Source: Escherichia coli
GTDB taxonomy: Bacteria > Pseudomonadota > Gammaproteobacteria > Enterobacterales > Enterobacteriaceae
DNA: 64,000 bases
Assembly (NCBI RefSeq): GCF_009931435.1
Contig: NZ_CP043414.1
Strand: one strand, 5' to 3'
The notes beneath the pieces were generated by a model. It was given only the letters and a program-made list of their open reading frames with translations, had not been told where the DNA came from and made no database searches. The translations under genes were made by a program, and so were the position numbers. Each line of letters opens with the position of its first letter. Within the stretch, counting starts at the first letter, position 1. This document shows, in pieces, positions 15,055-40,831 of the stretch.

Positions 15055-15245
15055 GGAAAACATGTCGGATGCGGCGTAAACGCCTTATCCGACCTACGGT
15101 TTGCATCGTTGCAGGCCTGATAAGACGCGGCAAGCGTCGCATCAGGCAACGGCAGTCGGATGCGGCGCAGGCGCCTTATTCGACCTACGGTTTGTGTCGT
15201 GTAGGCCTGATAAGACGCGGCAAGCGTCGCATCAGGCATTACAAG
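15055..15245. repeat. BIME: tandem array of about four REP units
   Basis: repeated gatgcggcgtaaacgccttatccgacctacgg / gcaggcctgataagacgcggcaagcgtcgcatcaggca units. Confidence 0.9.
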
Positions 15246-16446: not shown

Positions 16447-16842
16447 TTATGAGTGGTCATTAAAGGCATCCTTAATCCACTCAACTTCATTCCCGGTGAA
16501 GGCTACCACATCGAACCGGCAATCCACAGTATCAAAACTCCCATTATGACGCGCGAGCCACAAGCGGGCAGTCTGTAATAATTTGTGTTGTTTGCTGCGG
16601 GTCACACTGGCTGCCGCACCACCGTAAAGGGCTGAGCGGCGGTAACGCACCTCGACAAAAACGGTGGTCCTGCCTTCACGCATTATCAGATCGATCTCGC
16701 CGCCACGCTCGTTCACGTTAGCGGCGACAAACCGCAGTCCTTTGCTCTCCAGCCAGCGACGCGCTTGTGCTTCCCACGCATCGCCGGTCTGTTTAGTGGT
16801 TAACTGGCGGGGACTACCTGACCTTGTTGGTACTGTAGCCAT
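16447..16842 (-). CDS. yraN: UPF0102 protein YraN (predicted Holliday-junction-resolvase-like nuclease fold)
   Basis: 131 aa ORF; overlaps lpoA 3' end. Confidence 0.85.
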
Positions 16843-18836
16843 GATAACTTCCTGTTAATTACGCAATCCGGGTTAGCCGTCAGACTTCCGGTATTACCGT
16901 TGATTTCGAAACCCTGAACCTGGCGCATTTGTGAGAAATGATTTGCCAACGACCAGGCATCAACGCCCATCGCATACATGCGAGCCAGCGAATAATCGTT
17001 ATTCACCGCACTGAGCGCCTGCTGCATTAATGGCAGATTACCGCCCGCCAGCATCGGGATTTCGCTATATTGCAAACCTTCCATTTCCAGACGGAAATCC
17101 GGACCCGCGGTGCCTTGTGCGCTTCGGGAGCTTGCGTACAGCGTTGCACCGCTCTGGCTACCGTTACGCATGGCGATCATCGGTTTGATAAAAGCGATTT
17201 CACCCGGCGTTGCCACAATGTACACCGCATCGACACGACCGCCATTATTGGTGAACTGGTCATAGGTTGGCGTGGTTTGCAGCATTGGATTGTTGGTCGT
17301 TATGCCTGAATCGGTTGTCGCTCTGGGAGTAATCGGGCTACCGGTTAAAGCGATACCAGAACCACCGTTAACTCCCGCGCGTAATTCGCTGGTGGAACCA
17401 AATTTTTGTTGCAAAACGGTACCGCCGCCCAGCTTCTGCCACTCTTGCGCAAACGCATTGGCTACGCGATCGCCCAGCGAACTGCGAGGGATCAGCACCA
17501 GTGGCGCTTGTTTACCCTGGTCACGAATATGACGCGCTGCATCGCGCGCTTCGTCTTCCGGTGAAAGCGCGAAGTAACAAATATTGACGCGGTTTTCGAT
17601 ATTTTCCGGCTGGTTCAGTGCCAGCACGTTCAGCGGGGTGTTGCTTTTCAGTAACTCTTCAACGTTATTTTTCAGCAACGGACCGACCACAATACTCGCG
17701 CCATCCTGCTGAACCTGGTTGAGGATCTGGCTAAGCGGTTGTGATGAGGTATCATAAATTTTCAGCTCTGCGGATGGATTCGCGGGGGCGCTTACCGCCG
17801 CAGTGTTTGCCGCCGGGGCGCTTACAGGCACTGGTTGAGCCGCGGTTTCTTCGCCTGTCAGATCGCTAACCGAGGCTTGTGCCGGGCTGGCAACGCCGTC
17901 AACAGTTTGCTGCTGGGGTTGTTCTGCAACGTCTGCGATTGGTGCGGCAGTTGCCTGTGCCGCCACTGGCTGAGTGCCGATATTTTTCGCCGCTTCAAAG
18001 CCTTGCTGAATAGTGCGGCCAAATACTGCGGCCTGACCATTCAACGGCAATAACAGGGCTATTTTGTTGGTTGACGCTGGTTTAAATGCTTTTACGTTTA
18101 CCAACTGCGTAGGCAGCATTTTCGCGCCCGGGTTGTTCGGATAACGTTTCTGCCAGTCGGCGATCCCAGCTTTCATCATGTCGGGATCGTTACGGTTATC
18201 AAACCAGACGCGCTGCAGATCAAGCCAGCCTTGCAGAATATTTTCGTCGGCGTTGATCACCAGCGTATTCGCCTGGTCCTGAGTCATGGAGGAGAGTGCC
18301 TGCCATGTAGCATCAATATTCTGTTGCTTTTCTTTCGCGCCGAGCAGGGGTTCCTGAGCAATTAAGGCGCGCAGTAAATCAATGGAAGGACGCCCCTGAC
18401 TGGCATCGATTTTTGCCTGCCAGTAACGCGCCTGCTGGTTTTGATCTAAATCGGCAGGTGTGATTTTCGCCAGCAGGGTTTGTGCGCCAGCAAAATCTTT
18501 CTGCGCCAGCTTAATTTCTACTGCCAGAAGAGTTTTCTCGCGACGCTGGTAATCGTTCAGTTCCTGCGGCAGCTGGTTAAACAGCTCCACCGCCTGCCCG
18601 GTTTTACCTTCTTTCACCAGTGCACGAATGGCGAGTAATTGCCAGTTGATCCTGGTATCATCAGCGCTTTGCTGCATCTGCTGAAGATAAAAGGCAGAAT
18701 CAGCCTGCGCCGTGCCCTGCATATAGGCAGTGGACTGATCGGGAGTATGGGTGCCACAACCGGCGAAAATCAGGGCTGCCAGAACAACAGGCAGACAACG
18801 CGCGGCTTTCAAACGAGAAAATGTTGAGGGTACCAT
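16800..18836 (-). CDS. lpoA: penicillin-binding protein 1A activator lipoprotein LpoA (678 aa)
   Basis: ORF 16800..18866; start set at [27 protein letters not shown] (lipobox); N-terminal TPR-like and C-terminal periplasmic-binding-like domains. Confidence 0.9.
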
Positions 18837-18900
18837 AATGTATCCAGTGATATTTTTTTTACGCAATGCTCAATATTAAATCGGCAATACGGACGACACA

Positions 18901-19764
18901 ATGAAACAACACCAATCGGCGGATAATTCTCAGGGCCAGCTTTACATTGTACCGACGCCAATCGGCAATCTGGCAGATATCACCCAGCGTGCGTTGGAGG
19001 TTTTACAGGCCGTTGATCTGATTGCCGCCGAGGATACGCGTCATACCGGTTTACTGCTGCAACATTTTGGAATTAACGCCAGGTTGTTCGCCTTGCACGA
19101 CCATAACGAACAACAGAAAGCCGAAACGTTACTGGCGAAGCTGCAGGAAGGGCAAAACATTGCGCTGGTGTCCGATGCCGGAACGCCACTAATTAACGAT
19201 CCCGGCTATCATCTGGTGCGTACCTGCCGAGAAGCGGGGATTCGCGTGGTGCCACTACCGGGGCCGTGTGCTGCTATCACTGCATTAAGTGCTGCGGGTT
19301 TACCATCCGATCGTTTTTGTTATGAAGGCTTTTTACCTGCCAAATCAAAAGGCCGCCGTGATGCGCTAAAAGCCATTGAAGCGGAGCCGCGCACGCTGAT
19401 TTTTTATGAATCGACCCACCGTCTGTTAGATAGCCTGGAAGATATCGTTGCGGTATTAGGCGAATCCCGCTACGTCGTTCTGGCGCGTGAGCTGACCAAA
19501 ACCTGGGAAACCATTCACGGCGCGCCCGTTGGCGAGCTGCTGGCGTGGGTCAAAGAAGATGAAAACCGTCGCAAAGGTGAAATGGTGCTGATTGTTGAAG
19601 GCCATAAAGCACAGGAAGAAGACTTACCTGCCGATGCCCTGCGCACGCTGGCGTTGTTACAGGCTGAGCTTCCGCTGAAGAAAGCGGCGGCGCTGGCGGC
19701 AGAGATTCACGGCGTGAAAAAAAACGCGCTGTATAAGTATGCGCTGGAACAGCAGGGGGAGTGA
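18901..19764 (+). CDS. rsmI: 16S rRNA (cytidine1402-2'-O)-methyltransferase RsmI
   Basis: 287 aa; tetrapyrrole-methylase-like fold; divergent from lpoA. Confidence 0.9.
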
Positions 19765-19768
19765 TTAC

Positions 19769-19803
19769 AGGCGTCGCAGCAAGAATAGAGCTGCAACGCC
19801 TAC
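19769..19803. terminator. hairpin shared by convergent rsmI and agaI (likely bidirectional terminator)
   Basis: aggcgtcgcag...ctgcaacgcct inverted repeat in the ~50-bp gap. Confidence 0.5.
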
Positions 19804-19813
19804 ACCGGGCGAT

Positions 19814-20581
19814 TTAACGACGACACATCTCATCAATCATGCATGTGAAATAGTTATGCAGCCATAAAAACGAAGCCGGGATAGCGGTAGAGACTTTAGC
19901 CGTGAGAAAACGTTCTGTCGCATCCTGCTTTCCTTCGCCAGTCACCAGTAGCAAAACTTCGCGGGTATTGAGAATATCCTTCAGGCCTAAGGTGATCCCA
20001 CGAGTCACGGGGCGACCCGCGGTTTTTAACATCTCATGTTGCTGTGTTCTGGCATCAAGTTGACTGATATGGCAGGCCGGTTGCAGGCTTTCTCCCGGTT
20101 CGTTCAGCCCAAGATGACCGTTTTTCCCCAATCCGAGAACGCATAAATCCAGACCGCCTTTGCGCGCAATCAGGTTCGTTACCCGTTCGCACTCTGTCTC
20201 ATTTATCTCTTCGGAGCGAAAGCTGATGAGCTGGTCTTCACGTAGCCCCAGCGGCTGCACGATATGCTGTTGAAGGAAAGTTTCGCAGGTGCCAGGCATC
20301 GTTAATGGCAGATCCACCCATTCGTCGAGCTTCACGAAGGTGAGCTGGCTGACATCAACCTGCTGCTGGTGGATTTTTTCTACCAGATAATGATACGTCA
20401 GTAATGGCGTGGCTCCGGTCGCCAGGCAAATCACGGCATCCGGTTTGCTACGGATCACGGCCAATAAATATTCGCTGGCACGTTCACTTAACGCCGTATA
20501 GTTTTCAACTTGTTGAAGGGTTTGCACAGGATGAAATTCCTTTAGTAAAGAGGCACCACCAGACGCAGTGCCTCGTTCCAT
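19814..20581 (-). CDS. agaI: galactosamine-6-phosphate deaminase/isomerase (NagB family)
   Basis: 255-aa ORF, last gene of agaS-kbaY-agaBCDI; NagB-like; true start may be a few codons downstream. Confidence 0.85.
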   Translation of the reverse strand: MERGTASGGASLLKEFHPVQTLQQVENYTALSERASEYLLAVIRSKPDAVICLATGATPLLTYHYLVEKIHQQQVDVSQLTFVKLDEWVDLPLTMPGTCETFLQQHIVQPLGLREDQLISFRSEEINETECERVTNLIARKGGLDLCVLGLGKNGHLGLNEPGESLQPACHISQLDARTQQHEMLKTAGRPVTRGITLGLKDILNTREVLLLVTGEGKQDATERFLTAKVSTAIPASFLWLHNYFTCMIDEMCRR

Positions 20582-21373
20582 TTACAAAATGCCGAATGCG
20601 GAACAAACAATAGAGAGCACAAAAGTCACGCCGATTAACAGCACCGGATGCGCTTTTTTCACCCGCAGGAAGTAATACATCAGCAGGGTATAGGCCATCG
20701 GTAAAATGTTCGGGAAGACTTTATCGAAGAAATCCTGCTGCAGGGCGACGCTGTGGGTACTGTCGATCGCAAACGATGTCACCACGTTAATATGCACATA
20801 CGAAGCGATCAGCCCGCCGATTACCGTGATCCCGAGGATGGTTGCCGAACGAGCAATCATCTGCGAGTTCTCTCGCACTTTATCGATCGCCTTCACGCCG
20901 ACTGAATAACCGACGTGGGTCCAGCCGACGCGCAGGAAGAAGATAAGCAGGTAAACGGCGAAAAATAGAATCGGCCCCAGCAAGTTTCCCTGGCTGGCAA
21001 ATGATGAGCAAATTCCCGCCATAATCGGCAATAAGGTAAACCAGAAAATCGCATCGCCAATCCCGGCGATTGGGCCAAACAGTGCCACTTTGAGGCCTTT
21101 AATGGTGTCGCGGTTTTCTCCTTTTTCTTCCATCGAAATTAATAACCCCATCAGGAATCCGACCAGATTCGGGTGGGTATTAATAAATTCGAGGTTATCT
21201 TTCATCGCCGCGCTTAGGCCCGGTTTGTCGTCCTTATAAATCTTTTTCAGGATCGGCAACATCGCCCAGGTAAAACCGCCCGCCTGCATCCTTTCGTAGT
21301 TAAAGCTTGCTTGTAGCAGTGACGAACGAAAGCCCAGACGGGTGATATCTTTTTTACTGATTTCAGATCCCAT
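20582..21373 (-). CDS. agaD: PTS mannose-family EIID component (galactosamine-specific), 263 aa
   Basis: ORF 20582..21520; start set at MGSEISKKDITRLGFRS, giving 11-nt overlap with agaC. Confidence 0.88.
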   Translation of the reverse strand: MGSEISKKDITRLGFRSSLLQASFNYERMQAGGFTWAMLPILKKIYKDDKPGLSAAMKDNLEFINTHPNLVGFLMGLLISMEEKGENRDTIKGLKVALFGPIAGIGDAIFWFTLLPIMAGICSSFASQGNLLGPILFFAVYLLIFFLRVGWTHVGYSVGVKAIDKVRENSQMIARSATILGITVIGGLIASYVHINVVTSFAIDSTHSVALQQDFFDKVFPNILPMAYTLLMYYFLRVKKAHPVLLIGVTFVLSIVCSAFGIL

Positions 21374-25225: not shown

Positions 25226-26359
25226 TCAAAACGAAGCTAATTGACCCTGAATCCAGATTTGTTGCACATGCAGTCCGCTATTCAGCGCAACGACGCTGGC
25301 GCGTTTGCCCGGTTTAAGTGATCCCAGAACACCATCAACACCCAGCATACGCGCCGGATGCAGCGATGCCATATGGATGGCTTCCGCAGGCGTTACGCCC
25401 GTCAACTCGACCATGTTGCGCACTGCCGCATCGACAGACAGCGTACTGCCCGCCAGCCCACCGGACGCGGTACGGACAACGCCACCGTGCATCTGCACTT
25501 CTTCACCACATAACGTATAGCGACCATCCGGCATCCCGGCTGCCTGCATCGCGTCGGTGATGAGCACGATTCTCTCTTTCGCACAGCAACAACACAGCGA
25601 CATCGCCGCCGGATGAACATGATGCCCATCGGCTATCAGTTCCAGCCAGGCGCGCTTGTCCGTTAAACCCGCGCCAACCATTCCCGGTTCGCGGTGATGT
25701 AATCCTGTCATCCCGTTATAGCAATGCACCAGGCCGTCTGCGCCAGCATCAAATGCGGCGCGGGTTTGTTGCCAGGTTGCTGCGCTATGTCCCAGCATTA
25801 CCCGCACGTTCTGCTGTTTAAGATGACGAATGGCTTGTAACGCGCCCGTTTTTTCCGGTGCCAGCGCCACCACGCGCAAGGTATGCCGTGAAACAGCAAT
25901 CAATTGATCCAGCTCGGCAATTTCCAGCTCGCGAAACAGCTCCGGCGGATGTGCGCCTTTATTCTGCGGCGTGAAGTACGGCCCTTCGAGATAACTCCCC
26001 AGCACTTGCGCACCAGGTCCACCGCGCTGGCAGCGTAGCGCAATACGTTCCAGCGCCGCATGAATGGTATTAAGCGGCGCGGTTACGGTAGTCGGCAACC
26101 AACTGCCGACACCTTCCCGTGCCTTGTGCATTGCCAGCTTGTCGAGCGCATCCGGCGCGTCATCCATAACATCAACGCCCGCACCACCGTGTACATGGGT
26201 ATCGATATAAGCGGGGCAGAGCAGTTCCGCATCGCGTTCAGTCACGCCCACTGGAATCGGTTCGATTGCTGCGATTACACCGTCAGCAATACACAACTGA
26301 TGGTCATCGAGCCATCCCTCTTCAGTCAGCAGCCTTCTGGCGCGCAGAACGTGTGTCAT
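25226..26359 (-). CDS. agaA: N-acetylgalactosamine-6-phosphate deacetylase (NagA family), apparently full length
   Basis: ORF 25226..26380; start set at MTHVLRARRLL so that ATG overlaps agaF stop (ATGA); metal-binding H-x-H near N-terminus. Confidence 0.85.
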   Translation of the reverse strand: MTHVLRARRLLTEEGWLDDHQLCIADGVIAAIEPIPVGVTERDAELLCPAYIDTHVHGGAGVDVMDDAPDALDKLAMHKAREGVGSWLPTTVTAPLNTIHAALERIALRCQRGGPGAQVLGSYLEGPYFTPQNKGAHPPELFRELEIAELDQLIAVSRHTLRVVALAPEKTGALQAIRHLKQQNVRVMLGHSAATWQQTRAAFDAGADGLVHCYNGMTGLHHREPGMVGAGLTDKRAWLELIADGHHVHPAAMSLCCCCAKERIVLITDAMQAAGMPDGRYTLCGEEVQMHGGVVRTASGGLAGSTLSVDAAVRNMVELTGVTPAEAIHMASLHPARMLGVDGVLGSLKPGKRASVVALNSGLHVQQIWIQGQLASF

Positions 26360-26790
26360 ATTCCTTCCTCGACCGGACATTCTTCATGGCAGCGGCCTAA
26401 CTCGTCTACCAGACTGGTCAGCCCACGGTGTCCACACTCCAGCGCCTGCACACGGAATTCTTCACCGCTTAACCCTTCGCGCTCCAGCACCATTTCCAGT
26501 AACAGTTGCAAATTGGTGCCGGTGATCACTTCATAGCCCGGTTTTTGCATCGCCAGCGTTGAAGCCACGCGAAACGGTGTGCCGCCCAGCAAATCTGTCA
26601 GAAAAACAATGCCGTCTTCACAATCCAGTTTGGCAATGGCTTCTTCAAGCTGCGATGTAAGCAGCGCAGTGCTTGAGGTTTCCGGAAAATCAATGGCGAT
26701 AAACTGCGACTGCTCGCCGAGGATTTGCTTCATTGCTTTTTCCATGCCGCTGGCAAATCCGCCATGCCCTGTCAAAATAATACTTAACAT
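26356..26790 (-). CDS. agaF: PTS mannose-family EIIA component
   Basis: 144 aa; MLSIILTGHGGFASG... Confidence 0.85.
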   Translation of the reverse strand: MLSIILTGHGGFASGMEKAMKQILGEQSQFIAIDFPETSSTALLTSQLEEAIAKLDCEDGIVFLTDLLGGTPFRVASTLAMQKPGYEVITGTNLQLLLEMVLEREGLSGEEFRVQALECGHRGLTSLVDELGRCHEECPVEEGI

Positions 26791-26807
26791 CTAATACCTC
26801 ATTGTAT

Positions 26808-27692
26808 TTAAAGGAAATGACAGAATTTACCGACGATGCCAAGAACCACGGTAACCGCAATCAGGCGCAGCGGACTCCAGCCGCGGCGTACCAGCCAGAA
26901 CATGGTCAGGGTGTAGACCAGCGGTAAGAAGGCAGGCATCAGTTTGTCGATAACGTCAGCCTGCAGCTTAACCACTGCATCGCCCGCCGTGATTTCCAGC
27001 GTGGTGCTTAAACGAACATAGGTTGCCACCAGCGCGCCGATCACCGTCATCCCAACGATAGACGCTGCATGGCCGACTTTTTTGGTATTCGCTTTAATGA
27101 GTGGGATCGCCGCCACGCCCATGCGGTAAGCATAATGCGCCAGACCAAAACGCAGCCCCAGGTGTACCACGTTAAACAGCACAATAAACACGACTGCGCC
27201 AAGAATAGAGCCTTGCAATGCCAGACTGGCACCAATCCCGCCACAAATCGGCAGTAACGTTAGCCAGAACATGGCATCGCCAATCCCACCGAGCGGCGCA
27301 CCGACGGCAATTTTGGTGCTCTGAATACTGTTAACGTCCTGCTTAGAACGCTCCATCGCGAGGATAATGCCAATAACAAACGTCACCAGAAACGGATGGG
27401 TATTGAAGAAACCCATATGCCCCTTCATGGCGCGCGCCAGGTCGCGTTTATTAGTGTGGATCTTTTTCAGAGCAGGCAGCAGACCGTACAACCAGCCGGA
27501 AGCCTGCATACGTTCGTAGTTAAAAGACGCTTGTAACAGCATGGAACGCCAGGCGACGCGGTTGATATCTTTTTTTGTTAGCTCCGCGCCAATGCTCTGA
27601 TCTTCATACACGTTTTCATTGACGCCTGTCAGTAGTGTTTCTTCGTTTTCACTGACGTTCGGCAGGGTAGTTTGATTAGATGCCATCTTCAA
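26808..27692 (-). CDS. agaE: PTS mannose-family EIID component (N-acetylgalactosamine-specific)
   Basis: 294-aa membrane ORF, paralogous to agaD. Confidence 0.85.
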   Translation of the reverse strand: MKMASNQTTLPNVSENEETLLTGVNENVYEDQSIGAELTKKDINRVAWRSMLLQASFNYERMQASGWLYGLLPALKKIHTNKRDLARAMKGHMGFFNTHPFLVTFVIGIILAMERSKQDVNSIQSTKIAVGAPLGGIGDAMFWLTLLPICGGIGASLALQGSILGAVVFIVLFNVVHLGLRFGLAHYAYRMGVAAIPLIKANTKKVGHAASIVGMTVIGALVATYVRLSTTLEITAGDAVVKLQADVIDKLMPAFLPLVYTLTMFWLVRRGWSPLRLIAVTVVLGIVGKFCHFL

Positions 27693-28455
27693 ATTCCTCT
27701 TTCTGTGCCGCAGGTTGAGTCGGTTCAGGAGATTTACGCAGCAGGTCGATCAGCGCCATCGCCAGCGCGGCGGCAGCAATAGCCAGCACCGGTAACTTGA
27801 GCCAGGCGGCGGCAACGAAGCCCAGGATGAAGTAGGGGATATAGACGTTTTTCATCATGATTTTCAGCAGCACGGCAAAACCGATTGCTGGCATGATGCC
27901 GCCCGCGACGCCAAGGCCGTCGATTAACCGTTGCGGCAGGACATCAATGATGGTTTTTGCATGCTCCGCGCCGAAGTAGATAGGCAGGAAAGCGCAGAGA
28001 AAATAGAACGTGCCGAGTGCCAGCAATGCCAGATAGTTCACGCGTTCAATGCCGCGAGTATCGGCGTTCTCCGCCATCCGGTCGCAGCGGGACATCACGC
28101 CAGACATCACCGAGAACAGGAAGGTAATCCCCATCTGTACTGCGACAGCGAAAGGTACGGCGACACCGACCGCGACATCCGGTTTCACGCCAGTAGTAAT
28201 GGCAAACGCCGTGCCGACGATAGTTCCGATAATCACGTTAGGCGGCTGTGCGCCCGCCAGCGGTGCCAGCCCCATCCACACCAGTTCCAGCGTACCGCCG
28301 GTTAAAATACCGGTATGCAGATCGCCAAGCACCAACCCAACTAACGGGCCGAGGACCACCGGGCGGTGCATATGGGTTAGGCCGTTAAACATATCCAGGC
28401 CAGCGATAAAGGCGATAATGCCCAACGCAAATGCCTGCAACAGACTGATTTCCAT
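27676..28455 (-). CDS. agaW: PTS mannose-family EIIC component (N-acetylgalactosamine-specific), full length
   Basis: 259-aa membrane ORF, paralogous to agaC. Confidence 0.85.
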   Translation of the reverse strand: MEISLLQAFALGIIAFIAGLDMFNGLTHMHRPVVLGPLVGLVLGDLHTGILTGGTLELVWMGLAPLAGAQPPNVIIGTIVGTAFAITTGVKPDVAVGVAVPFAVAVQMGITFLFSVMSGVMSRCDRMAENADTRGIERVNYLALLALGTFYFLCAFLPIYFGAEHAKTIIDVLPQRLIDGLGVAGGIMPAIGFAVLLKIMMKNVYIPYFILGFVAAAWLKLPVLAIAAAALAMALIDLLRKSPEPTQPAAQKEEFEDGI

Positions 28456-31300: not shown

Positions 31301-31589
31301 GAAATGGCGCCCGTAGCTCAACACGGATGTGTTCGGCGGGCATTGTTCACTGACCTTTTACAGCCTGTTTTCTGCTCAAATTAGAAACTTCAGCAAAGGT
31401 AATGCAAATGCATTATTAACAGCAGAAAGCGCCAGAACCAACGAAAAAAGAGAGCATGTTTCCCATTTTGCGAGGCGCTTTCCAAATCACCCGCTCAGTC
31501 CCCTCGCGTTGCAGTGCTAAAAGCACTATTTTGCAAATTTGTGACCTTCTTCACTCTCCCAAAAGGCGGTGATCTCACGGTGGGGATCC

Positions 31590-31815
31590 ACTTTCTGCTT
31601 TCGCTTTTCTGCCGTTAGCACTCGCTATTTCGGCATCTCTTCTTTTCACTTTTTCAGTTTGTCATTTTCATTTGCGGTCAACCGAAAGTTCTGGAGTCGA
31701 TTTTTCCAGGTTTCAACGCCGTTGTCGCGTTCACAAATTCACTTCTTTTCTTCTGATGTAATGCATTCAAAAGAAAATGAAAGCTGCAAAATGCAAGAAT
31801 GCAACGAAATACTTT
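31590..31815. promoter_or_regulatory. long leader of the second DeoR gene, rich in TTTC/GAAA repeats (candidate operator array)
   Basis: ctttctgctttcgcttttctgcc, tcttttcactttttcagtttgtcattttcatttgcgg, gaaaatgaaagctg; motif class resembles the aga operators. Confidence 0.4.
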
Positions 31816-31832
31816 TTCAGGGAGCGATAAAC

Positions 31833-32603
31833 ATGCTAGATAGCCTAAGACGCCGCGAACAAATCATTGATTTGTTATGTGCCCAGGGAAGCGTACGCGT
31901 TGAGCCGCTCAGCATCCATTTTGGTGTCTCATCGGTCACGATCCGCAATGACTTACGGTATCTGGAGCAAAAAGGTTGCGTCATGCGTTCCTATGGCGGT
32001 GCCGTGTTGAATCAACACTTTGCGCTCGACAGACCCTTGCAGGATAAAGATCGCCTTAATCGTGATGTTAAAGTGCGAATTGCCGAAAAAGCGGCCAGTT
32101 TTGTCAAAGATGGCGATACATTAATTATCGATTCTGGTTCAACGACCACGCTAATTCCCGCTTCGCTCAAAGGGCGTCGGGATTTAGTCGTCATGACGAA
32201 TGCCTTGAATATCGCCTGGGAAATGGCCAGTTTTGAACGGGTGGATGTTATGATCCTTGGTGGAAATGTTCGCCAGAGCGTCTACTCCCTGTATGGGCCT
32301 TCGGCAGAACAACAACTCCGGCAGTATCGCTTTGATAAGCTGTTTTTGGGCGTGGACGGCTTTTGCCTTGAAGCAGGGATTACCACACCACATCCGGGTG
32401 AGGCACATCTGAACCAGGTGATGTGCCAGGTTGCGCAGGAAATTACTGTTGTCGCGGACTCCAGTAAATTTGGCCGCAAAAGCTTCTGTATGATCGGTGA
32501 AGTGAGCGAGATAGATCGACTGATTACCGATAGCGGTATTCCGGAGAATTACAAAGCAGCATTAACGCAAATGGGTGTGGAAGTTGTGATTGCTGATGAG
32601 TGA
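31833..32603 (+). CDS. DeoR-family transcriptional regulator, AgaR paralogue (256 aa)
   Basis: ORF 31569..32603; start set at MLDSLRRREQIIDLL preceded by GGAG; alignable by eye with AgaR along its length (…VTIRNDL..LE.KG…YGGA…DSG.TT…FLGVD…). Confidence 0.8.
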   Translation: MLDSLRRREQIIDLLCAQGSVRVEPLSIHFGVSSVTIRNDLRYLEQKGCVMRSYGGAVLNQHFALDRPLQDKDRLNRDVKVRIAEKAASFVKDGDTLIIDSGSTTTLIPASLKGRRDLVVMTNALNIAWEMASFERVDVMILGGNVRQSVYSLYGPSAEQQLRQYRFDKLFLGVDGFCLEAGITTPHPGEAHLNQVMCQVAQEITVVADSSKFGRKSFCMIGEVSEIDRLITDSGIPENYKAALTQMGVEVVIADE

Positions 32604-32604
32604 G

Positions 32605-32642
32605 AAAATGTGGCTGGAGATAAACGTCGCCAGCCACATTAC
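32605..32642. terminator. bidirectional hairpin terminator between convergent DeoR gene and ROK kinase gene
   Basis: aatgtggctgg...ccagccacatt inverted repeat. Confidence 0.6.
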
Positions 32643-32647
32643 GTTAT

Positions 32648-33559
32648 TCAGGTTGCAAGTTCGATTTGCAGCAACGCCGCGCCTCGTACACCGCTCGTTG
32701 CTCCGTGAATCGCAGAAAATACGCGCGCAGGTTCCAGTCCAGGAAGAAGATAACGCGTCATAGCTTTCGGCAATAACGTGTAAATTTCTTTGAAGTTAGA
32801 CACACCGCCGCCAAGAACAAATGCATCTACGTCGAGAATATGCTGCAACTGTGCCAGCGTACAACCAACCATATCTATCCAGGCGCTAATGGTGGTGATG
32901 GCACTGGGAACGCCACGTTGATGATTTTCTAACAATGTCTCCATAGTGATTTGCTCACCGCTGAAATGCTTATGTAACCAGAGCAAGCCAGGACCGGACT
33001 GGTAGCGTTCCAGGCACCCTTGCAAACCGCAGCCGCATTGTAATTCAGGCAGGTTATAGCGCCGCGTAAATGTCGCCGGGAGCGGTAAATGGCCAAACTC
33101 GCAGGCCATACGGTTACGGCCACGGTACAACTGGCCATCAATAACTAATCCCCCGCCCATACCCGTGCCGATAATCGCGCCAAAGATCCGACTATATTGA
33201 CGAGCTTGATCGGTATGCGCTTCTGATAGGGCGAAGCAGCAGCAGTCATTATCCATTATTACCGGGCGGTTAAGGCGATTTGCCAGATCGGTTAACACCT
33301 GGCGTCCGGTCAGGCAGGGAACGTTAGAAGACAACAGTTTACCGGTGTGCCGATCCATAACGCCGGGCATCCCGATACCTATTTTGCCTTGCGTACCCGT
33401 GGCCCAGTCAGCGGTATCAATCAGAGACACAAATGTGGATAGAAAAAGCGCGTAATCCTGAACAGGCGTAGCTACCCGCTTGCGCCAGCAAATTTGTAAA
33501 TCCTGATCAAAGGCGACTATCTCTGTTTTGGTTCCACCAATATCAACACCGTAAAACAT
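32648..33559 (-). CDS. ROK-family sugar kinase (NagK-like N-acetylhexosamine kinase candidate), 303 aa
   Basis: N-terminal GVDIGGTK ATP motif; ROK zinc motif CGCGLQGCLERY; same length as the NagK family. Confidence 0.8.
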   Translation of the reverse strand: MFYGVDIGGTKTEIVAFDQDLQICWRKRVATPVQDYALFLSTFVSLIDTADWATGTQGKIGIGMPGVMDRHTGKLLSSNVPCLTGRQVLTDLANRLNRPVIMDNDCCCFALSEAHTDQARQYSRIFGAIIGTGMGGGLVIDGQLYRGRNRMACEFGHLPLPATFTRRYNLPELQCGCGLQGCLERYQSGPGLLWLHKHFSGEQITMETLLENHQRGVPSAITTISAWIDMVGCTLAQLQHILDVDAFVLGGGVSNFKEIYTLLPKAMTRYLLPGLEPARVFSAIHGATSGVRGAALLQIELAT

Positions 33560-33577
33560 CGCTCATCTCCTTTGGTT

Positions 33578-34834
33578 TCACAGCACAACCAGGGTATTTT
33601 CCTTGCGAGCGCGTTCGGCGGCAAAGACCATTAAATGACTTTCGAGCGATTCATCTGGTCCTGAAAGGATCATCGCTCGATCGTCAGCCATCACGGCATG
33701 GATAAAGCTGTCCATCAGATAGTAATCACCACCACCGTGCCCTCCCATTTGGGTGTGAGTGCCTGCGTTTTTCTCTTCAACGGTGTAAATAGTTTCCTGG
33801 TCGGTGAGAAAATCAAAACACCGAATGGTGTTGCCATCGCCTTCCAGATAACCTTTCGAACCGAAAACTCGGGTTTTGCGATCCTCCATTTTCGTAAAGG
33901 CTGTCATTGTAAAAGTGACGCTCTGCTGATGCGCAAACTGCATGTTTACCACTTGATGATCAACAACATCGTTATCGCAGCAATAAACACAGCGACCATA
34001 GGGGCCGTCACGCAGGGCCTGACGAATATTCTCTTCAGTAGGATTTGGTGTTAACACGTGGCGAAAGTGAAACGTACATTTATGGGCTTCGCCAGCATAA
34101 ATTTTGCATGCGGACCACGGGCAGGTCGCTTCTGCCTGGCAATCGAGACAGCGTTCGGCTGCGCCTTCAGGTTGGTTTTGTTTTACAAAATGGTTGAGCC
34201 CGCCAAATGAGCTAACGGTTTTACAGTTGTCTCCCATGATGTAGCGGATCCAGTCCAGATCGTGGCAGGACTTTTGTAACAACATAAATGATGATTCAGC
34301 CTCGTTGCGCCAGTTACCACGCACAAAAGAGTGTGCCTGGTGCCAGTAACCGACGGGTTCGAGATGCTGCATACTGATAATGTCGCCAATGATGCCGCTG
34401 TCGAGTAAGGATTTGAGTTTTTGTGTATATCGGGTGTAACGAAGAACGTGTGCGACGGCTAATAAGACATTATTGCGTTTGACGGCATCAATGATAATGC
34501 GGCAATCGTGCTCTGTTGGCGCGAGCGGTTTTTCCAACAGAATGTGATAACCGAGATCGGCAAAAGCGACGGCCGGATCTCTATGCATATTGTCTTGCGT
34601 ACAAATAAGTACAGCATCAGCCATTTTTGGCCGAGCAGCAGCCTCTTTCCAGTTGCTAAAAATATTATCTGTCGGGATCGTATGCCGGGACACAACTTGC
34701 TCGCGGTAAGCCTCTCTAGGTTCAGCAACACCTACCACTTGCATTCTGTCCGGATGCTCAAGGGCATAGCGGGAATATATTTCTCCACGTGCGCCTGCAC
34801 CTATTACTAAAACAGTGACTTTATTTTTACTCAT
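33578..34834 (-). CDS. Gfo/Idh/MocA-family NAD(P)-dependent oxidoreductase with Cys-rich insert
   Basis: N-terminal Rossmann VLVIGAGARG and EKP motif (LLEKPLA); internal Cys cluster CLDCQAEATCPWSACK ... CVYCCD. Confidence 0.75.
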   Translation of the reverse strand: MSKNKVTVLVIGAGARGEIYSRYALEHPDRMQVVGVAEPREAYREQVVSRHTIPTDNIFSNWKEAAARPKMADAVLICTQDNMHRDPAVAFADLGYHILLEKPLAPTEHDCRIIIDAVKRNNVLLAVAHVLRYTRYTQKLKSLLDSGIIGDIISMQHLEPVGYWHQAHSFVRGNWRNEAESSFMLLQKSCHDLDWIRYIMGDNCKTVSSFGGLNHFVKQNQPEGAAERCLDCQAEATCPWSACKIYAGEAHKCTFHFRHVLTPNPTEENIRQALRDGPYGRCVYCCDNDVVDHQVVNMQFAHQQSVTFTMTAFTKMEDRKTRVFGSKGYLEGDGNTIRCFDFLTDQETIYTVEEKNAGTHTQMGGHGGGDYYLMDSFIHAVMADDRAMILSGPDESLESHLMVFAAERARKENTLVVL

Positions 34835-34876
34835 ATAAAGAAATACCTTTCTGATAAATTCATCTTAATTGCTACG

Positions 34877-35635
34877 TTATAAATTACGAAAACTAACAAG
34901 ATGAAATCCGTGTTTTTCAATCGCATATTTGAGTGACGGTGTAGTCAGAACCGTAAGTTCTTCCAGCCGTTGATAGCAGTAACTGCTCGACATTAAGTGG
35001 TTATCTACAAATCCAGGGTGACACATAATTTCCAGCGATTTTTCATCACGTTTTATGGCGCTATCGAGGAGTGATAAAAAAAAGTCTTCTGAAATATTAT
35101 TATCGTAGAAATTACTGCTGAATCCCTCACTACTTTTGGCATCCAGCGAATCGATTTTTTTCTCTCGCAGGACAGAATGGTCTATACGTAATGGTAAATT
35201 TTTCTCACGCGCGAACCGCGCGACAACGGGATAAACCTGCGGGAGCATATGAACGCTGTGATGGCTGTCTAAATGGGTGGGCTCCCGTTTAAATACATCA
35301 ATAAAACGTTGATATTGAGAATTCAGTTCCTGTTCAATTTCACCCGTGTTTAATTGCCCTTGCTCCGCGACATCCCAGATCCATTTACCTAATTGGCCTG
35401 CGCGTACCAGCGAAGGCATATCCGTTAAGGCAGCGCCATAGCTCAAAACAAAATGTAACCCGACGCCGAGCTGTGGGGTTTCGGCACTTAAAGAGGCAGC
35501 ATGATCAATTGCCGGAGCATTCATCATCGCAGTTGTTGAGCGAACGACACCATTTCGTACTGCCTCGATAATTCCATAATTAATACCTTTACTTAGTCCA
35601 AAGTCATCCGCATTCACAATTAATAAGCGTTGCAT
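34877..35635 (-). CDS. YdjC/ChbG-family carbohydrate deacetylase
   Basis: MQRLLIVNADDFGLSKGINYGIIEA... and HLDSHH metal-site motif typical of the ChbG/YdjC family. Confidence 0.85.
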   Translation of the reverse strand: MQRLLIVNADDFGLSKGINYGIIEAVRNGVVRSTTAMMNAPAIDHAASLSAETPQLGVGLHFVLSYGAALTDMPSLVRAGQLGKWIWDVAEQGQLNTGEIEQELNSQYQRFIDVFKREPTHLDSHHSVHMLPQVYPVVARFAREKNLPLRIDHSVLREKKIDSLDAKSSEGFSSNFYDNNISEDFFLSLLDSAIKRDEKSLEIMCHPGFVDNHLMSSSYCYQRLEELTVLTTPSLKYAIEKHGFHLVSFRNL

Positions 35636-35647
35636 AAGGCGTCCTTG

Positions 35648-37000
35648 TTATTGATGAGATTGGGTAAGTTCAGCAATGGTGCTGGAAAATTGAGGCAGAT
35701 GTTTTTTATGGGCAATGATCAGTTCACGTACTAATTTTTCAGCGTCGTTATCCGAGGTCATTAGCGGGTTAAGGCACAGAGCCAGCAGCGTATCGTTATA
35801 GTTACCACTTATTGCCGCCCGGGCTGCCGCGATCTCAAAACATTTGATTGAATGAATGAGCCCCAGTACATTTTCGTCAAAATGAGTGAGACGCGGGTGG
35901 GGGGTAACACCGTTATTCCCCAGAATGCAGGTCATTTCAACGGTCCAGTCTTCAGGGATATTTTTTACACTGCCCTTGTGTGGAATATTAACGTAGTGTT
36001 CTGTTTGCGTGTCATTATAAATTGCATTAATAACGGCACAGGCTGCATCTGAATAATACGCACCACCACGCAGCTCCAGTTCTTCAGGTTTTGTATTTAG
36101 TTCTGGGTCCTTATACAGCTCAAATAATTTTTTCTCTAATGCCTGCACGACTTGTGCACGAACGCCATTTTTATAAAATTCCCCCATCTCAATAGCGAGC
36201 ATTTCTTTATGTTTAAAATAGTAACGTAAGTAAGCACAGGGCAGGAGATTAAGTGCCCGAATTAAATTAGGATTGAAGGTTAAACTGTCAATATTTTTGA
36301 CGGTACTTCCTTCAAGCAAACCTTCAACGACGCCATCGAGCAATTCAGCAAAACGTGATTGTCCATTGACCCATACGTCTTTAAGAAAGACCATATGATT
36401 TAAGCCAAATATGTCTATTGAAAGATCATCGTCCGCGCCAAGTTTTAGGGCATTGCAAACGAAGCTCTTCATCCCAATAGGGACATTACAGACACCGATA
36501 AAACGTTTAAATTGGGTATGGCGGTACACGGCTTCAGTAACCATCCCGGCAGGATTGGTAAAATTAATAATCCAGGCATCAGGGCAAAGTTCCTCAACAT
36601 CTTTGATAATATCAAAAACTACTGGAATGGTTCGTAACCCGTTGAATAAACCGCCCGCGCCATTGGTTTCTTGCCCGAGATATCCCTGACTTAGTGGAAT
36701 CAACTCATCCATTTCCCGAGCTTTTAATTGCCCGACCCGAAATTGTGTGGTGACAAAGTGCGCGCCCTGTAATGCAGCGCGACGGTCAAGTGTTTTCACT
36801 ATTTTTAACGGAATGCCAGCTTTTATCACCATCCGCTGACAAAGGTCGAAAATAATGTCCAGCTTTTCTTTGCCTTCTTCAATATCAACTAACCATAATT
36901 CACTGACCGGTAATTCATCGTAGCGTTTTATGAATCCTTCAAGGAGTTCTGGTGTATAGCTACTGCCACCGCCAATAGTAACGATTTTTAAGTTTTTCAT
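35648..37000 (-). CDS. glycoside hydrolase family 4 NAD+/Mn2+-dependent 6-phospho-glycosidase (ChbF-like), 450 aa
   Basis: N-terminal KIVTIGGGSSYTPEL dinucleotide-binding signature and GH4-type core (…FINFTNPAG…CNVPIGM…). Confidence 0.85.
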   Translation of the reverse strand: MKNLKIVTIGGGSSYTPELLEGFIKRYDELPVSELWLVDIEEGKEKLDIIFDLCQRMVIKAGIPLKIVKTLDRRAALQGAHFVTTQFRVGQLKAREMDELIPLSQGYLGQETNGAGGLFNGLRTIPVVFDIIKDVEELCPDAWIINFTNPAGMVTEAVYRHTQFKRFIGVCNVPIGMKSFVCNALKLGADDDLSIDIFGLNHMVFLKDVWVNGQSRFAELLDGVVEGLLEGSTVKNIDSLTFNPNLIRALNLLPCAYLRYYFKHKEMLAIEMGEFYKNGVRAQVVQALEKKLFELYKDPELNTKPEELELRGGAYYSDAACAVINAIYNDTQTEHYVNIPHKGSVKNIPEDWTVEMTCILGNNGVTPHPRLTHFDENVLGLIHSIKCFEIAAARAAISGNYNDTLLALCLNPLMTSDNDAEKLVRELIIAHKKHLPQFSSTIAELTQSHQ

Positions 37001-37077
37001 GTTACTTCCATACTCAATATTAAATTGACTTGTGATGCCATGGTTTTATCTAAACGCTGGCATGATGAAGTGTGCTA

Positions 37078-38439
37078 TTAAAACTTTAATGCATTGGCAA
37101 TGTCTTCTTCGCTTTCTTGTTTAATTATTTCAACTTGTGCTTTGTTTGAGATAATGACAAAGGGAAGATAAACCATTGTGGCAACACCTAAGTTAAAGAG
37201 CGCCAGGAGTAATCCAGCAATGCTACCATTCGAGCTAAAGAACGCATTGAGTCCAGGAGGCATGGTCCAGGGGGCAATATTTGTTGATGGCGGAATAATA
37301 CCCATGTTATAGGCGATTAAGGTAATCCCGGCGAGAATAGGTTGAATCATCACAAACGGGATTAACATAATGGGGTTCATAATGATCGGCAAACCAAATA
37401 AAATAGGTTCGTTGATATTAAAGATACCAGAAGGTAACGCTAATTTAGCAACCTGACGATAATCTTCCCGGCGTGACGCAATGAAAATGGCGAAAATGAG
37501 TCCCAGCGTTGCCCCTGTTCCACCGAGGAACACGTAAGCGTCAAGCATTGGCCCGGTCCAGAAATGGAAGGTTTTTCCTGCTTCCAGTGCCGCTTGTACT
37601 GAACCATATTGTGTATAGGTGGCGATATTCTCCAGTCCCCACGGACCCAACGTGCTGCTTTGCAACGCGGTTAATACTAAGCCGCCGTGGATACCAAAGA
37701 ACCATAACAGGGAATTAAAGACAACGAATGTCCAGCCAACAATACCGCTCATTGACGTTAATGGCGTAGCCAGTGAGGTGATAATGACCTGATGGAAATT
37801 GGTGCCATATATCGACAATATCCCAGACAAACTACCCATAATTAACAGGATGATAAACCCGGGCACCATTGCTGAGAATGAGCGTGATACTGCGGTCGGA
37901 ACACTCGCGGGCAACCGAATCACCCAATTGCGGCGGATAATAAAAGCGAAAATTTCCGCTACAACTAATCCAATGATCATACCAGACAGAATATTGGCGC
38001 CGCCTAACCAGTTTGCACCAATGACATTAGCGGTTTCTCCTGCCTTGAAGGGGGTGACAGTCATAAACGCTGCGACAGAGAGTAAGCCAACGGATAACGA
38101 ATCAACTTTCCGTTCTTCGGCCAACCCCATCCCAATAAAAAAGGGGGTCATGAGTGACATAATGCCCAGCGTGCCATGATAAGCACTGTCACCGACGACG
38201 GTGAAGGCGCTTAAGGTTTTTATGGTCGATGGTTCCAGTCGGACGCCTAATGAATAAAAAAAGGAGCCTTCGCCAAAATCTAAAAAAACGCTATTAATGA
38301 GGACAAATAACGTACCGGCTAACGTTAATGGCATCATACGGATAAAACCGTTTTTTATTGCATTGACGTGAGGTTGTTTCCCTAATTTAACTGCAAAAGG
38401 AAGAATGAGTTTTTCAAGTAACGCCATCACTCCGGGCAT
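37078..38439 (-). CDS. PTS lactose/cellobiose-family EIIC component (ChbC-like)
   Basis: 453-aa polytopic membrane ORF with the lactose/cellobiose-family EIIC motif …[14 protein letters not shown]…. Confidence 0.85.
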
Positions 38440-38508
38440 AAAAATATCCTTATATACCGATTAATGTATCACTGCGACTTTGGTTTTATTAATATCCTGT
38501 TGCTATGG

Positions 38509-38826
38509 TTACTTTTGCTCTTTTTTTATTATGGCGATAGCTGATTTTAGAACACCTAAGCCATCAATTTTTCCATATAACATTGAATCAATAACTTCCA
38601 CTGGCTTTCCTGGTAATAAGCTTTGGATCTCTGATTGCATGTAAGCAATTTGAGGTCCCAATAATATAACATCGGCTTCCGGCCCTTTCTCTGCGGCAAC
38701 AGATTCGGAGAATGCTTCGATAATTACTGGCACATCATATTTTATCGCCTGCACTTTCATTTTTGACACCAGCAGTGATGTTGACATTCCCGCTGAACAA
38801 AATAAGTATATTTTTTTCTTTTCCAT
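38509..38826 (-). CDS. PTS lactose/cellobiose-family EIIB component (ChbB-like), 105 aa
   Basis: ORF 38509..39042; start set at [23 protein letters not shown] (phospho-Cys motif), preceded by GGAG. Confidence 0.8.
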
Positions 38827-39059
38827 AGGGACTCCAGATATATTACGTAATAATATATTTGTCATGCCATGAATGGCATATGAGGCGACTTTAATTAAAA
38901 AGGCACGGATGTTTATATTGATTTCCTGAATGTCGTCTTTTGGTATTAATCTCAAAAATTTCAGGAGCCATTGAATAATCTGGTTTATAGGATTGAATGT
39001 CAAGAGAGTGAAATTGTGGGCGTGTTGTAATAAAAATAGCACGGCTTTCGGTAGGTTTC

Positions 39060-39165
39060 TTTTTTAGCGGAATGAAAAGTACAGGCAAAATGGTAATTGA
39101 ATAAATTAACGTTTTTTCAATAGATTACGTTTTTTTCTGCCTACAGGAATGAAAAAAACAACAAT
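39060..39165 (-). promoter_or_regulatory. putative promoter/operator region of the EIIB-led operon with two GGAATGAAAA repeats
   Basis: gcggaatgaaaagtacagg and acaggaatgaaaaaaacaac about 75 bp apart in AT-rich DNA upstream of the EIIB start. Confidence 0.35.
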
Positions 39166-39211
39166 CTAAAAATACTTTAGATATGTGAGAGTTATCACTT
39201 ACTTTTCGTGG

Positions 39212-39245
39212 GGAAAACGGGGAAACACAGTCTCCCCGTTTTCCG
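39212..39245 (-). terminator. garD rho-independent terminator
   Basis: aaacgggga...tccccgttt hairpin immediately downstream of garD stop. Confidence 0.65.
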
Positions 39246-39259
39246 TTCATGCAAGGCCG

Positions 39260-40831
39260 TCAAGTCACCGGTGCCGGGTTAAACACCGCCAGCTGGTTAT
39301 GCAGTCCCCATTGATCTGAGAAGGTTTTCTTCTTCCCGCTGGCGACGTCGAGAATAAAATGGAACAATTTCCAGCCCACCTCTTCAATAGTTTCTTCGCC
39401 GGTAGCGATGGTGCCCGCATTAATATCCATTAAATCAAACCAGCGGTTCGCCAGCTCGGTGCGGGTCGCCATTTTAATGACGGGTACCGCCATCAGGCCG
39501 TACGGCGTGCCGCGACCGGTCGTAAACACTTGCACGGTAATCCCTGATGCCACCTGTTGCGTGCCACAGACAAAATCGCTGGCTGGCGTCGCGGCGTAAA
39601 TTAATCCGCGTTTAGTCGGGCGTTGACCGGGCGATAGCACTTCAACAATTGCGCTTTTACCCGATTTAGCAATGGAGCCGAGAGCCTTCTCCACTACGTT
39701 TGCCAGACCGCCTTTCTTGTTGCCCGGAGAAGGGTTGGCGCTGCGGTCGGTTTTTCCCATATTGAGATAGTTATCGTACCACTCCATCTCCTCCAGCAGC
39801 CGTTTGCCGACCTCTTCGTTCACTGCGCGTGGTGTCAGCAGATGGATCGCGTCACGCACTTCTGTGACTTCTGAAAACATCACCGTTGCGCCGCAGCGCA
39901 CCAGTAGATCAGACGCATACCCAACCGCCGGGTTTGCCGTTACGCCAGAAAACGCATCGCTGCCACCGCACTGCATGCCGACAACCAGTTCTGAAGCCGG
40001 ACAGGTTTCTCGCTGACGTTGATTCAGTTTTTGTAGATGGCGTTCGGCGACCTGCAAAATATCCTCGACCATGGACTGAAAACCGACATGCTTTTCATCC
40101 TGCAAACTGACAATGCTGGCGCTTTCTACTGGAATAGCTTGCACATCATCCGTTCCAGTCAGCAGGCGCTCAGGCTGCAACTTTTCACAACCCAGACCAA
40201 TCACCATTACTTCGCCGCCAAAGTTAGGGTTCAGCGAAATATTGTGAATGGTACGAATAGGCACAACTGCCGCCGGTGCGTTAATCGCCACGCCACAACC
40301 GTACAAATGATTCAGCCCCACCACGCCATCGACGTTCGGGTATTTCGGTAGCAGATCGCGTTCAATGATTTTTACTACATAGTCCACCACGCCTGCCACA
40401 CAGTGGACGCTGGTGGTGATGCCGAGCAGGTTTTTGGTGCCCACGCTGCCATCGGCATTGCGATAGCCCTCAAAGGTGTATCCTTCCAGTGGCGGTAAGG
40501 GGGCCGGGACTTTAGTTGCCAGTGGCAGCGTGTGTAACGGTGGCGCTTCCGGTAGTACAACCATTGATTCGTCGATCCAGCTTCCGCGTGGGATTGCGCG
40601 CACGGCGTAACCAATCACTTCACCATAACGAATAATTTCACCATTAGCCGGAATGTCCAGCAATGCGACTTTATGCCCCTGGGGAATATGTTCAATTAAT
40701 TCCAGCCCATCCGGAAAACGCGTTCCTGCTTTCAGGCCATTATCATTAACAATAATTGCCACATTATCTGTGTCGTGAACTTTTATATAAAACGCAGTTG
40801 GCGTTTCTTGTCTGATTTCGATGTTGGCCAT
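39260..40831 (-). CDS. garD: galactarate dehydratase (L-threo-3-deoxy-hexulosonate-forming)
   Basis: 523 aa; [28 protein letters not shown]...; divergent from garPLRK. Confidence 0.9.

Follow-up and report, generated by a model that had tools for sequence, protein, structure and literature searches.

The rsmI and agaI genes in the 64,000-nucleotide window (the whole stretch of DNA that was analyzed) lie tail to tail across a spacer of exactly 49 bp, and the yraHIJK fimbrial genes that separate them in E. coli K-12 are absent. We consider it probable that this is the ancestral-type, yra-less form of the agaI-rsmI junction, passed down within Escherichia cryptic clade I, and that yraHIJK was inserted at this site in other lineages. 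The yra-less junction is an ordinary allele of a common and already documented presence/absence polymorphism, so that the finding, while real, is known and matters little. The modest additions to published work are the description of the junction at the base level, in which ~98 bp stand in place of ~5.5 kb without flanking repeats, and the recognition of other alleles at the same site in other Escherichia lineages, which is an only mildly interesting extension.

Structure of the junction and comparison with K-12

The features of the junction are listed here by their positions in the window.

18901 to 19764, + strand: rsmI, an 864-nt ORF of 287 aa for the 16S rRNA C1402 2'-O-methyltransferase, with its TGA stop codon at 19762-19764
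19759 to 19856, no strand assigned: allele-specific segment of ~98 bp with no BLAST-alignable K-12 counterpart, made up of the last rsmI codon and stop, the spacer and the last ~14 agaI codons
19765 to 19813, no strand assigned: spacer of exactly 49 bp between the convergent stops, the "empty-site" allele of the agaI-rsmI junction
19768 to 19802, no strand assigned: hairpin of 11-13 pairs closing a 9-nt loop, with a U-tract on neither strand, identified by folding and comparison
19814 to 20581, - strand: agaI, a 768-nt ORF of 255 aa, annotated as galactosamine-6-phosphate isomerase/deaminase, with its stop seen as TTA on the + strand at 19814-19816

The identities of the two genes were established by tblastn, in which the K-12 RsmI protein matched the window at 100% over 286 aa and the K-12 AgaI protein at 96.8% over 250 aa. 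Both genes are named likewise in the RefSeq annotation of the collinear strain R32_14_1F, which is 98.5% identical to the window. The neighboring genes are lpoA, yraN, diaA and dolP on the rsmI side and agaD, agaC, agaB, kbaY and agaS on the other. The original prediction had rsmI and agaI converging directly at a distance of about 50 bp, with one shared hairpin between them, and both statements proved accurate: the spacer (19765-19813) contains a single inverted repeat with its core at 19768-19802. No ORF or gene lies between the two stops, and tblastn searches with YraH, YraI, YraJ and YraK found no homologs anywhere in the 64-kb window (best E-value 0.067, which is at chance level).

When the window was aligned across rsmI-agaI with K-12 and other E. 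coli genomes, the two genes were found not to be adjacent in K-12. The gene order in MG1655 is agaI (b3141), yraH, yraI, yraJ, yraK and rsmI (b3146), the stops of agaI and rsmI being 5,449 bp apart. This is the order given in the original prediction, and the 5.4-kb block is indeed missing from the window. The K-12 locus, which encodes the cryptic gamma-type chaperone-usher Yra fimbriae, agrees with the window in its flanking genes, in their convergent orientation and in the wider synteny of the aga cluster and, opposite it, lpoA-yraN-diaA-dolP. It differs from the window in its four fimbrial genes and also in the ends of both flanking genes. K-12 RsmI ends in EQQG, one codon short of the EQQGE seen in the window, and K-12 agaI has its own 3' end, encoding a protein of 251 aa that terminates in LHSNFICLINT, whereas the 255-aa protein of the window terminates in LHNYFTCMIDEMCRR. 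The BLAST alignment of the window with K-12 accordingly ends at 19758 on the rsmI side and restarts at 19857 on the agaI side, and the ~98 bp between these positions sit where K-12 has ~5.5 kb including yraHIJK. The window has all the marks of the yra-less allele: convergent genes with nothing between them, an AgaI of 255 aa with the C-terminus IDEMCRR, an RsmI of 287 aa ending in QQGE, and the 49-bp hairpin spacer. Its distinctive AgaI and RsmI C-termini make the yra-less junction a handy lineage marker.

The K-12 yra block has a lower GC content (45.3%) than its flanks (50.6% and 53.9%), and the sequence upstream of yraH is only 28% GC. The block was searched for flanking direct or inverted repeats, as a signature of transposition, integration or excision, but the longest shared words were 8 nt, as expected by chance. 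If the empty-site spacer were homologous to the rsmI-yraK spacer of K-12 or E. whittamii, the point of insertion would lie between the hairpin and agaI. Scores from local alignment were compared with those of shuffled sequences; the resulting p values of 0.016-0.17, with only 7-8-mers shared, leave such homology unsupported.

A conserved hairpin in the spacer

The predicted stability of the spacer hairpin depends on the strand. In the rsmI sense it folds at -19.5 kcal/mol (z = -2.0; 9 of 200 shuffled sequences were as stable), and in the agaI sense at -26.2 kcal/mol (z = -4.7; none of 200). The agaI-sense fold is the stronger because a C·A mismatch on one strand is a G·U pair on the other. Six Escherichia sequences retain the hairpin: pairing is preserved in 92% of cells, and at one pair G-C is replaced by A-U in a compensatory change; a single compensatory pair among six sequences is too few for covariation to be significant.

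A GC-rich stem-loop is present on both strands, but the stem is followed by ACACCGGG on the + strand and GTAATCAC on the - strand, neither of which qualifies as a U-rich tract, and a terminator-pattern scan of 19500-20100 returned 0 sites. Lacking a U-tract, the hairpin is not a canonical intrinsic terminator. It nevertheless resembles the bidirectional intrinsic terminators of convergent genes in being a single GC-rich hairpin between convergent stops that can fold on both strands and is conserved genus-wide; the missing U-rich tract after the stem, on either strand, is the difference. K-12 rsmI, by contrast, has a canonical hairpin and T-run terminator downstream. An Rfam search of the spacer matched no known RNA family. 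A REP or other dispersed intergenic repeat was considered and rejected, since the hairpin sequence occurs once in the window, even with up to 3 mismatches allowed, and a junction-specific probe found a median of one place per genome. The hairpin may serve the convergent aga and rsmI transcripts as a shared 3'-end stabilizer, a processing stop or a transcription barrier.

Distribution of the yra-less allele and lineage of the window

The frequency of the junction was determined among 5,426 complete E. coli genomes with a 1.7-kb query (window positions 18900-20600). Contiguous rsmI-agaI was found in 1,835 of them (34%), including 042 and Nissle 1917; in the remaining genomes the two halves of the query match apart. 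The 181-nt junction-specific probe detected 1,821 genomes, and yra-bearing genomes match only its bases 1-59, which belong to rsmI. The K-12 yra block is present in 3,523 of the 5,426 genomes; it lies on the chromosome in every case, the median number of places per genome is one, and IS elements split it in some. Together the yra-less and yra-bearing classes account for 5,358 genomes, and the rest includes other alleles, such as that of strain N96 described below.

The yra-less relatives closely resemble the window. Strains 042 (phylogroup D) and Nissle 1917 (B2) and the clade I strains R32_14_1F and 2013C-4282 share with the window an rsmI of 864 nt, an agaI of 768 nt, the 49-bp spacer with its hairpin, and the C-termini of AgaI and RsmI. 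Between the window and R32_14_1F the spacer does not differ at all, and 2013C-4282 matches the 181-nt probe at 100% identity. The differences are point substitutions only, the 1.7-kb query being 95-96% identical to 042 and Nissle 1917 and 98.9% identical to R32_14_1F. Spacers that equal that of the window in length and closely resemble it in sequence occur in 042, Nissle 1917, Escherichia sp. E1V33, strain E69 and E. albertii.

The polymorphism has left several traces in the literature. The root lineage of phylogroups E/B1/A has been described as having "acquired the yra operon" (PMC6896753), the usher YraJ is unevenly distributed across E. coli lineages (PMC5717340), and yra transcripts were reported to be specific to A/B1 urinary isolates (PMC4128348). 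The main text of Wurpel et al. 2013 (PMC3559732) does not mention yra. The UshC operon, which is reported to be mutually exclusive with YraJ, was considered as an alternative allele of the same site and rejected, as the locus tag ECSF_0165 puts it at a different chromosomal location.

A 22-kb portion of the window covering the gar and tdc region (40200-62400) has only 28 matching genomes with identities of 99% or above; among the matches listed, the next-best identity over this portion is 95.4%, to ordinary E. coli. Identity to strain 2013C-4282 is 99.0% over the 22 kb, and that of the close set is 99.0-99.1%. Strain 2013C-4282 is a defined member of Escherichia cryptic clade I, within which ANI exceeds 98.3%, against ~96% to E. 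coli sensu stricto (PMC10100065). On identity over the window, rather than genome-wide ANI, the DNA is assigned to cryptic clade I. Seven clade-I-like genomes were inspected, and six of them (R32_14_1F, 2013C-4282, E400634, Z0117EC0005, WL297 and 2017-02-2CC) have the 49-bp junction, in each case between an rsmI of 864 nt and an agaI of 768 nt. None of the seven has yra; the seventh, N96, carries a third allele. As read within the 64-kb window, this is a cryptic clade I strain without the cryptic Yra chaperone-usher fimbriae, as in phylogroups B2 and D.

Origin of the alternative alleles

A scan of species-representative genomes for relatives of AgaI yielded six loci. In E. albertii, Escherichia sp. 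E1V33 and strain E69, agaI and rsmI are convergent across a 49-bp spacer, with AgaI ending in DEMCRR and RsmI in QQGE. In Trabulsiella odontotermitis, agaI also adjoins rsmI, but the genes are 102 bp apart with a REP-like element between them, and RsmI ends in QQG, as it does in K-12. E. whittamii has yraHIJK at the agaI-rsmI site, with 83-90% amino acid identity to K-12. At the same site, Escherichia sp. MOD1-EC7003 (our locus L009, 9778-15167) has a four-gene yra-like chaperone-usher operon of 42.7% GC, whose products are 53-65% identical to K-12 YraHIJK and where the AgaI C-terminus reads KLTLEKHNYIL. An AT-rich agaI 3' end, TAACTTTAYTTGYTTAWT, is common to three filled alleles and unlike the empty alleles, which suggests a single origin of the filled allele.

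The original prediction had left two possibilities, that the operon was never acquired by this strain or that it was cleanly lost. The first is strongly favored and is by far the better account of the sequences compared: the spacer, the AgaI tail and the RsmI end are those of E. albertii and yra-less E. coli, and the same sequences are absent from K-12-type genomes, which speaks against clean loss. Because the empty allele shares with the basal E. albertii conserved sequence that is missing from K-12, it cannot be a simple deletion of the K-12 arrangement, and non-acquisition is therefore the parsimonious reading; the published polarity (PMC6896753) agrees with it. It should be noted that this polarity is based on two outgroups only, and that the QQG terminus of Trabulsiella RsmI implies that the Escherichia empty allele is not itself unchanged at the nucleotide level. 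The presence of yra or yra-like operons at the same site in E. whittamii and MOD1-EC7003 implies that the filled allele, too, is old and that its distribution in the genus is patchy.

From these comparisons, a plausible history of the site can be proposed. In the ancestral-type allele, the aga operon and rsmI would have stood tail to tail across the 49-bp spacer, whose hairpin probably marks or stabilizes the 3' ends of both convergent transcripts. The yraHIJK block, of lower GC content, would then have been inserted at the junction in E. coli phylogroups E/B1/A and in E. whittamii, replacing the spacer and the extreme 3' ends of agaI and rsmI. The lineage of the window would never have received yraHIJK, and the strain would for that reason be without Yra fimbriae, the absence of yra being read within the 64-kb window.

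Four alleles can be distinguished at the rsmI 3' junction: the empty allele with its conserved hairpin, the yra allele of the K-12/E. whittamii type, the yra-like allele of MOD1-EC7003, and a block in N96 that comprises malX/malY, LysR and MBL hydrolase genes. We can therefore offer, as a tentative idea that we hold to be somewhat doubtful, that this junction is a long-lived recombination hotspot at which several alternative alleles have been kept across Escherichia, and that the presence or absence of Yra is a trans-species polymorphism spread by recombination in the flanks, not the outcome of a single gain in the E/B1/A lineage. The supply by each allele of its own AgaI C-terminus may be part of the same phenomenon.

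In E. coli N96 (our locus L022, NZ_CM169999.1, 930-6200), the third allele replaces agaB, agaC, agaD and agaI beside rsmI with genes for an MBL-fold hydrolase, a LysR regulator, a PTS IIB fragment, a MalY/PatB-like protein and a MalX-like PTS IIBC. On the other side of the junction in the window, the lpoA-rsmI region (16800-19764) is 87-97% identical in 150-bp bins to K-12, 042 and Nissle 1917, against ~98% on the aga side, a divergence that points to a mosaic, presumably recombined flank.

Such a flank bears on the possibility of secondary loss by allelic replacement, in which a yra-bearing ancestor would have regained the empty allele by recombination within agaI and rsmI with yra-less donor DNA. 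The mosaic flanks fit this course of events, and so do the yra-type alleles at the same site in other Escherichia clades, since they mean that alleles either move between lineages or persist across them. We nevertheless regard it as unlikely, given that six of the seven clade-I-like genomes have the empty allele and none has yra, and that the site is likewise empty in E. coli B2 and D, the sister groups, and in E. albertii, the outgroup; with all of these empty, a gain followed by a loss is unneeded. Much less credible is the idea that the strain or its recent ancestors started from a K-12-like arrangement and cleanly deleted yraHIJK. It accounts for the absence of the operon and nothing more, and it is effectively refuted: a deletion cannot make the hairpin spacer and the IDEMCRR and QQGE termini, which recur nearly base for base in E. 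albertii and are absent in K-12-type genomes, no fragment of yra is left in the 64-kb window, and the K-12 block has no flanking direct or inverted repeats above chance that could mediate excision. Collapse or loss of the operon during assembly has no support and is hardly conceivable with the same junction in 1,821-1,835 independently finished genomes. Inheritance of an ancestral-type yra-less junction thus remains the reading that we prefer.

Several differences from other genomes were observed elsewhere in the window. Between agaR and garD lies a sugar-utilization cluster of ~7.9 kb (31346-39260) with genes for a second DeoR/AgaR-like repressor, a ROK protein, a Gfo/Idh/MocA oxidoreductase, a ChbG-like deacetylase, a 6-phospho-beta-glucosidase and PTS IIC and IIB components. 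Among the genomes inspected, the cluster is common only to R32_14_1F; at its position K-12, E400634, 2017-02-2CC and N96 carry the prlF-yhaV toxin-antitoxin pair. The agaW-agaE-agaF-agaA genes (agaA being nagA-like) are intact at 25784-28080, a segment of ~2.3 kb that is deleted in K-12, where agaW and agaA are pseudogenes. Finally, each of two adjacent segments of ~85 bp (15064-15148 and 15155-15238) aligns in R32_14_1F at the place of the other, with 92-96% identity, which indicates a putative short tandem duplication between yraQ and dolP (15064-15238).
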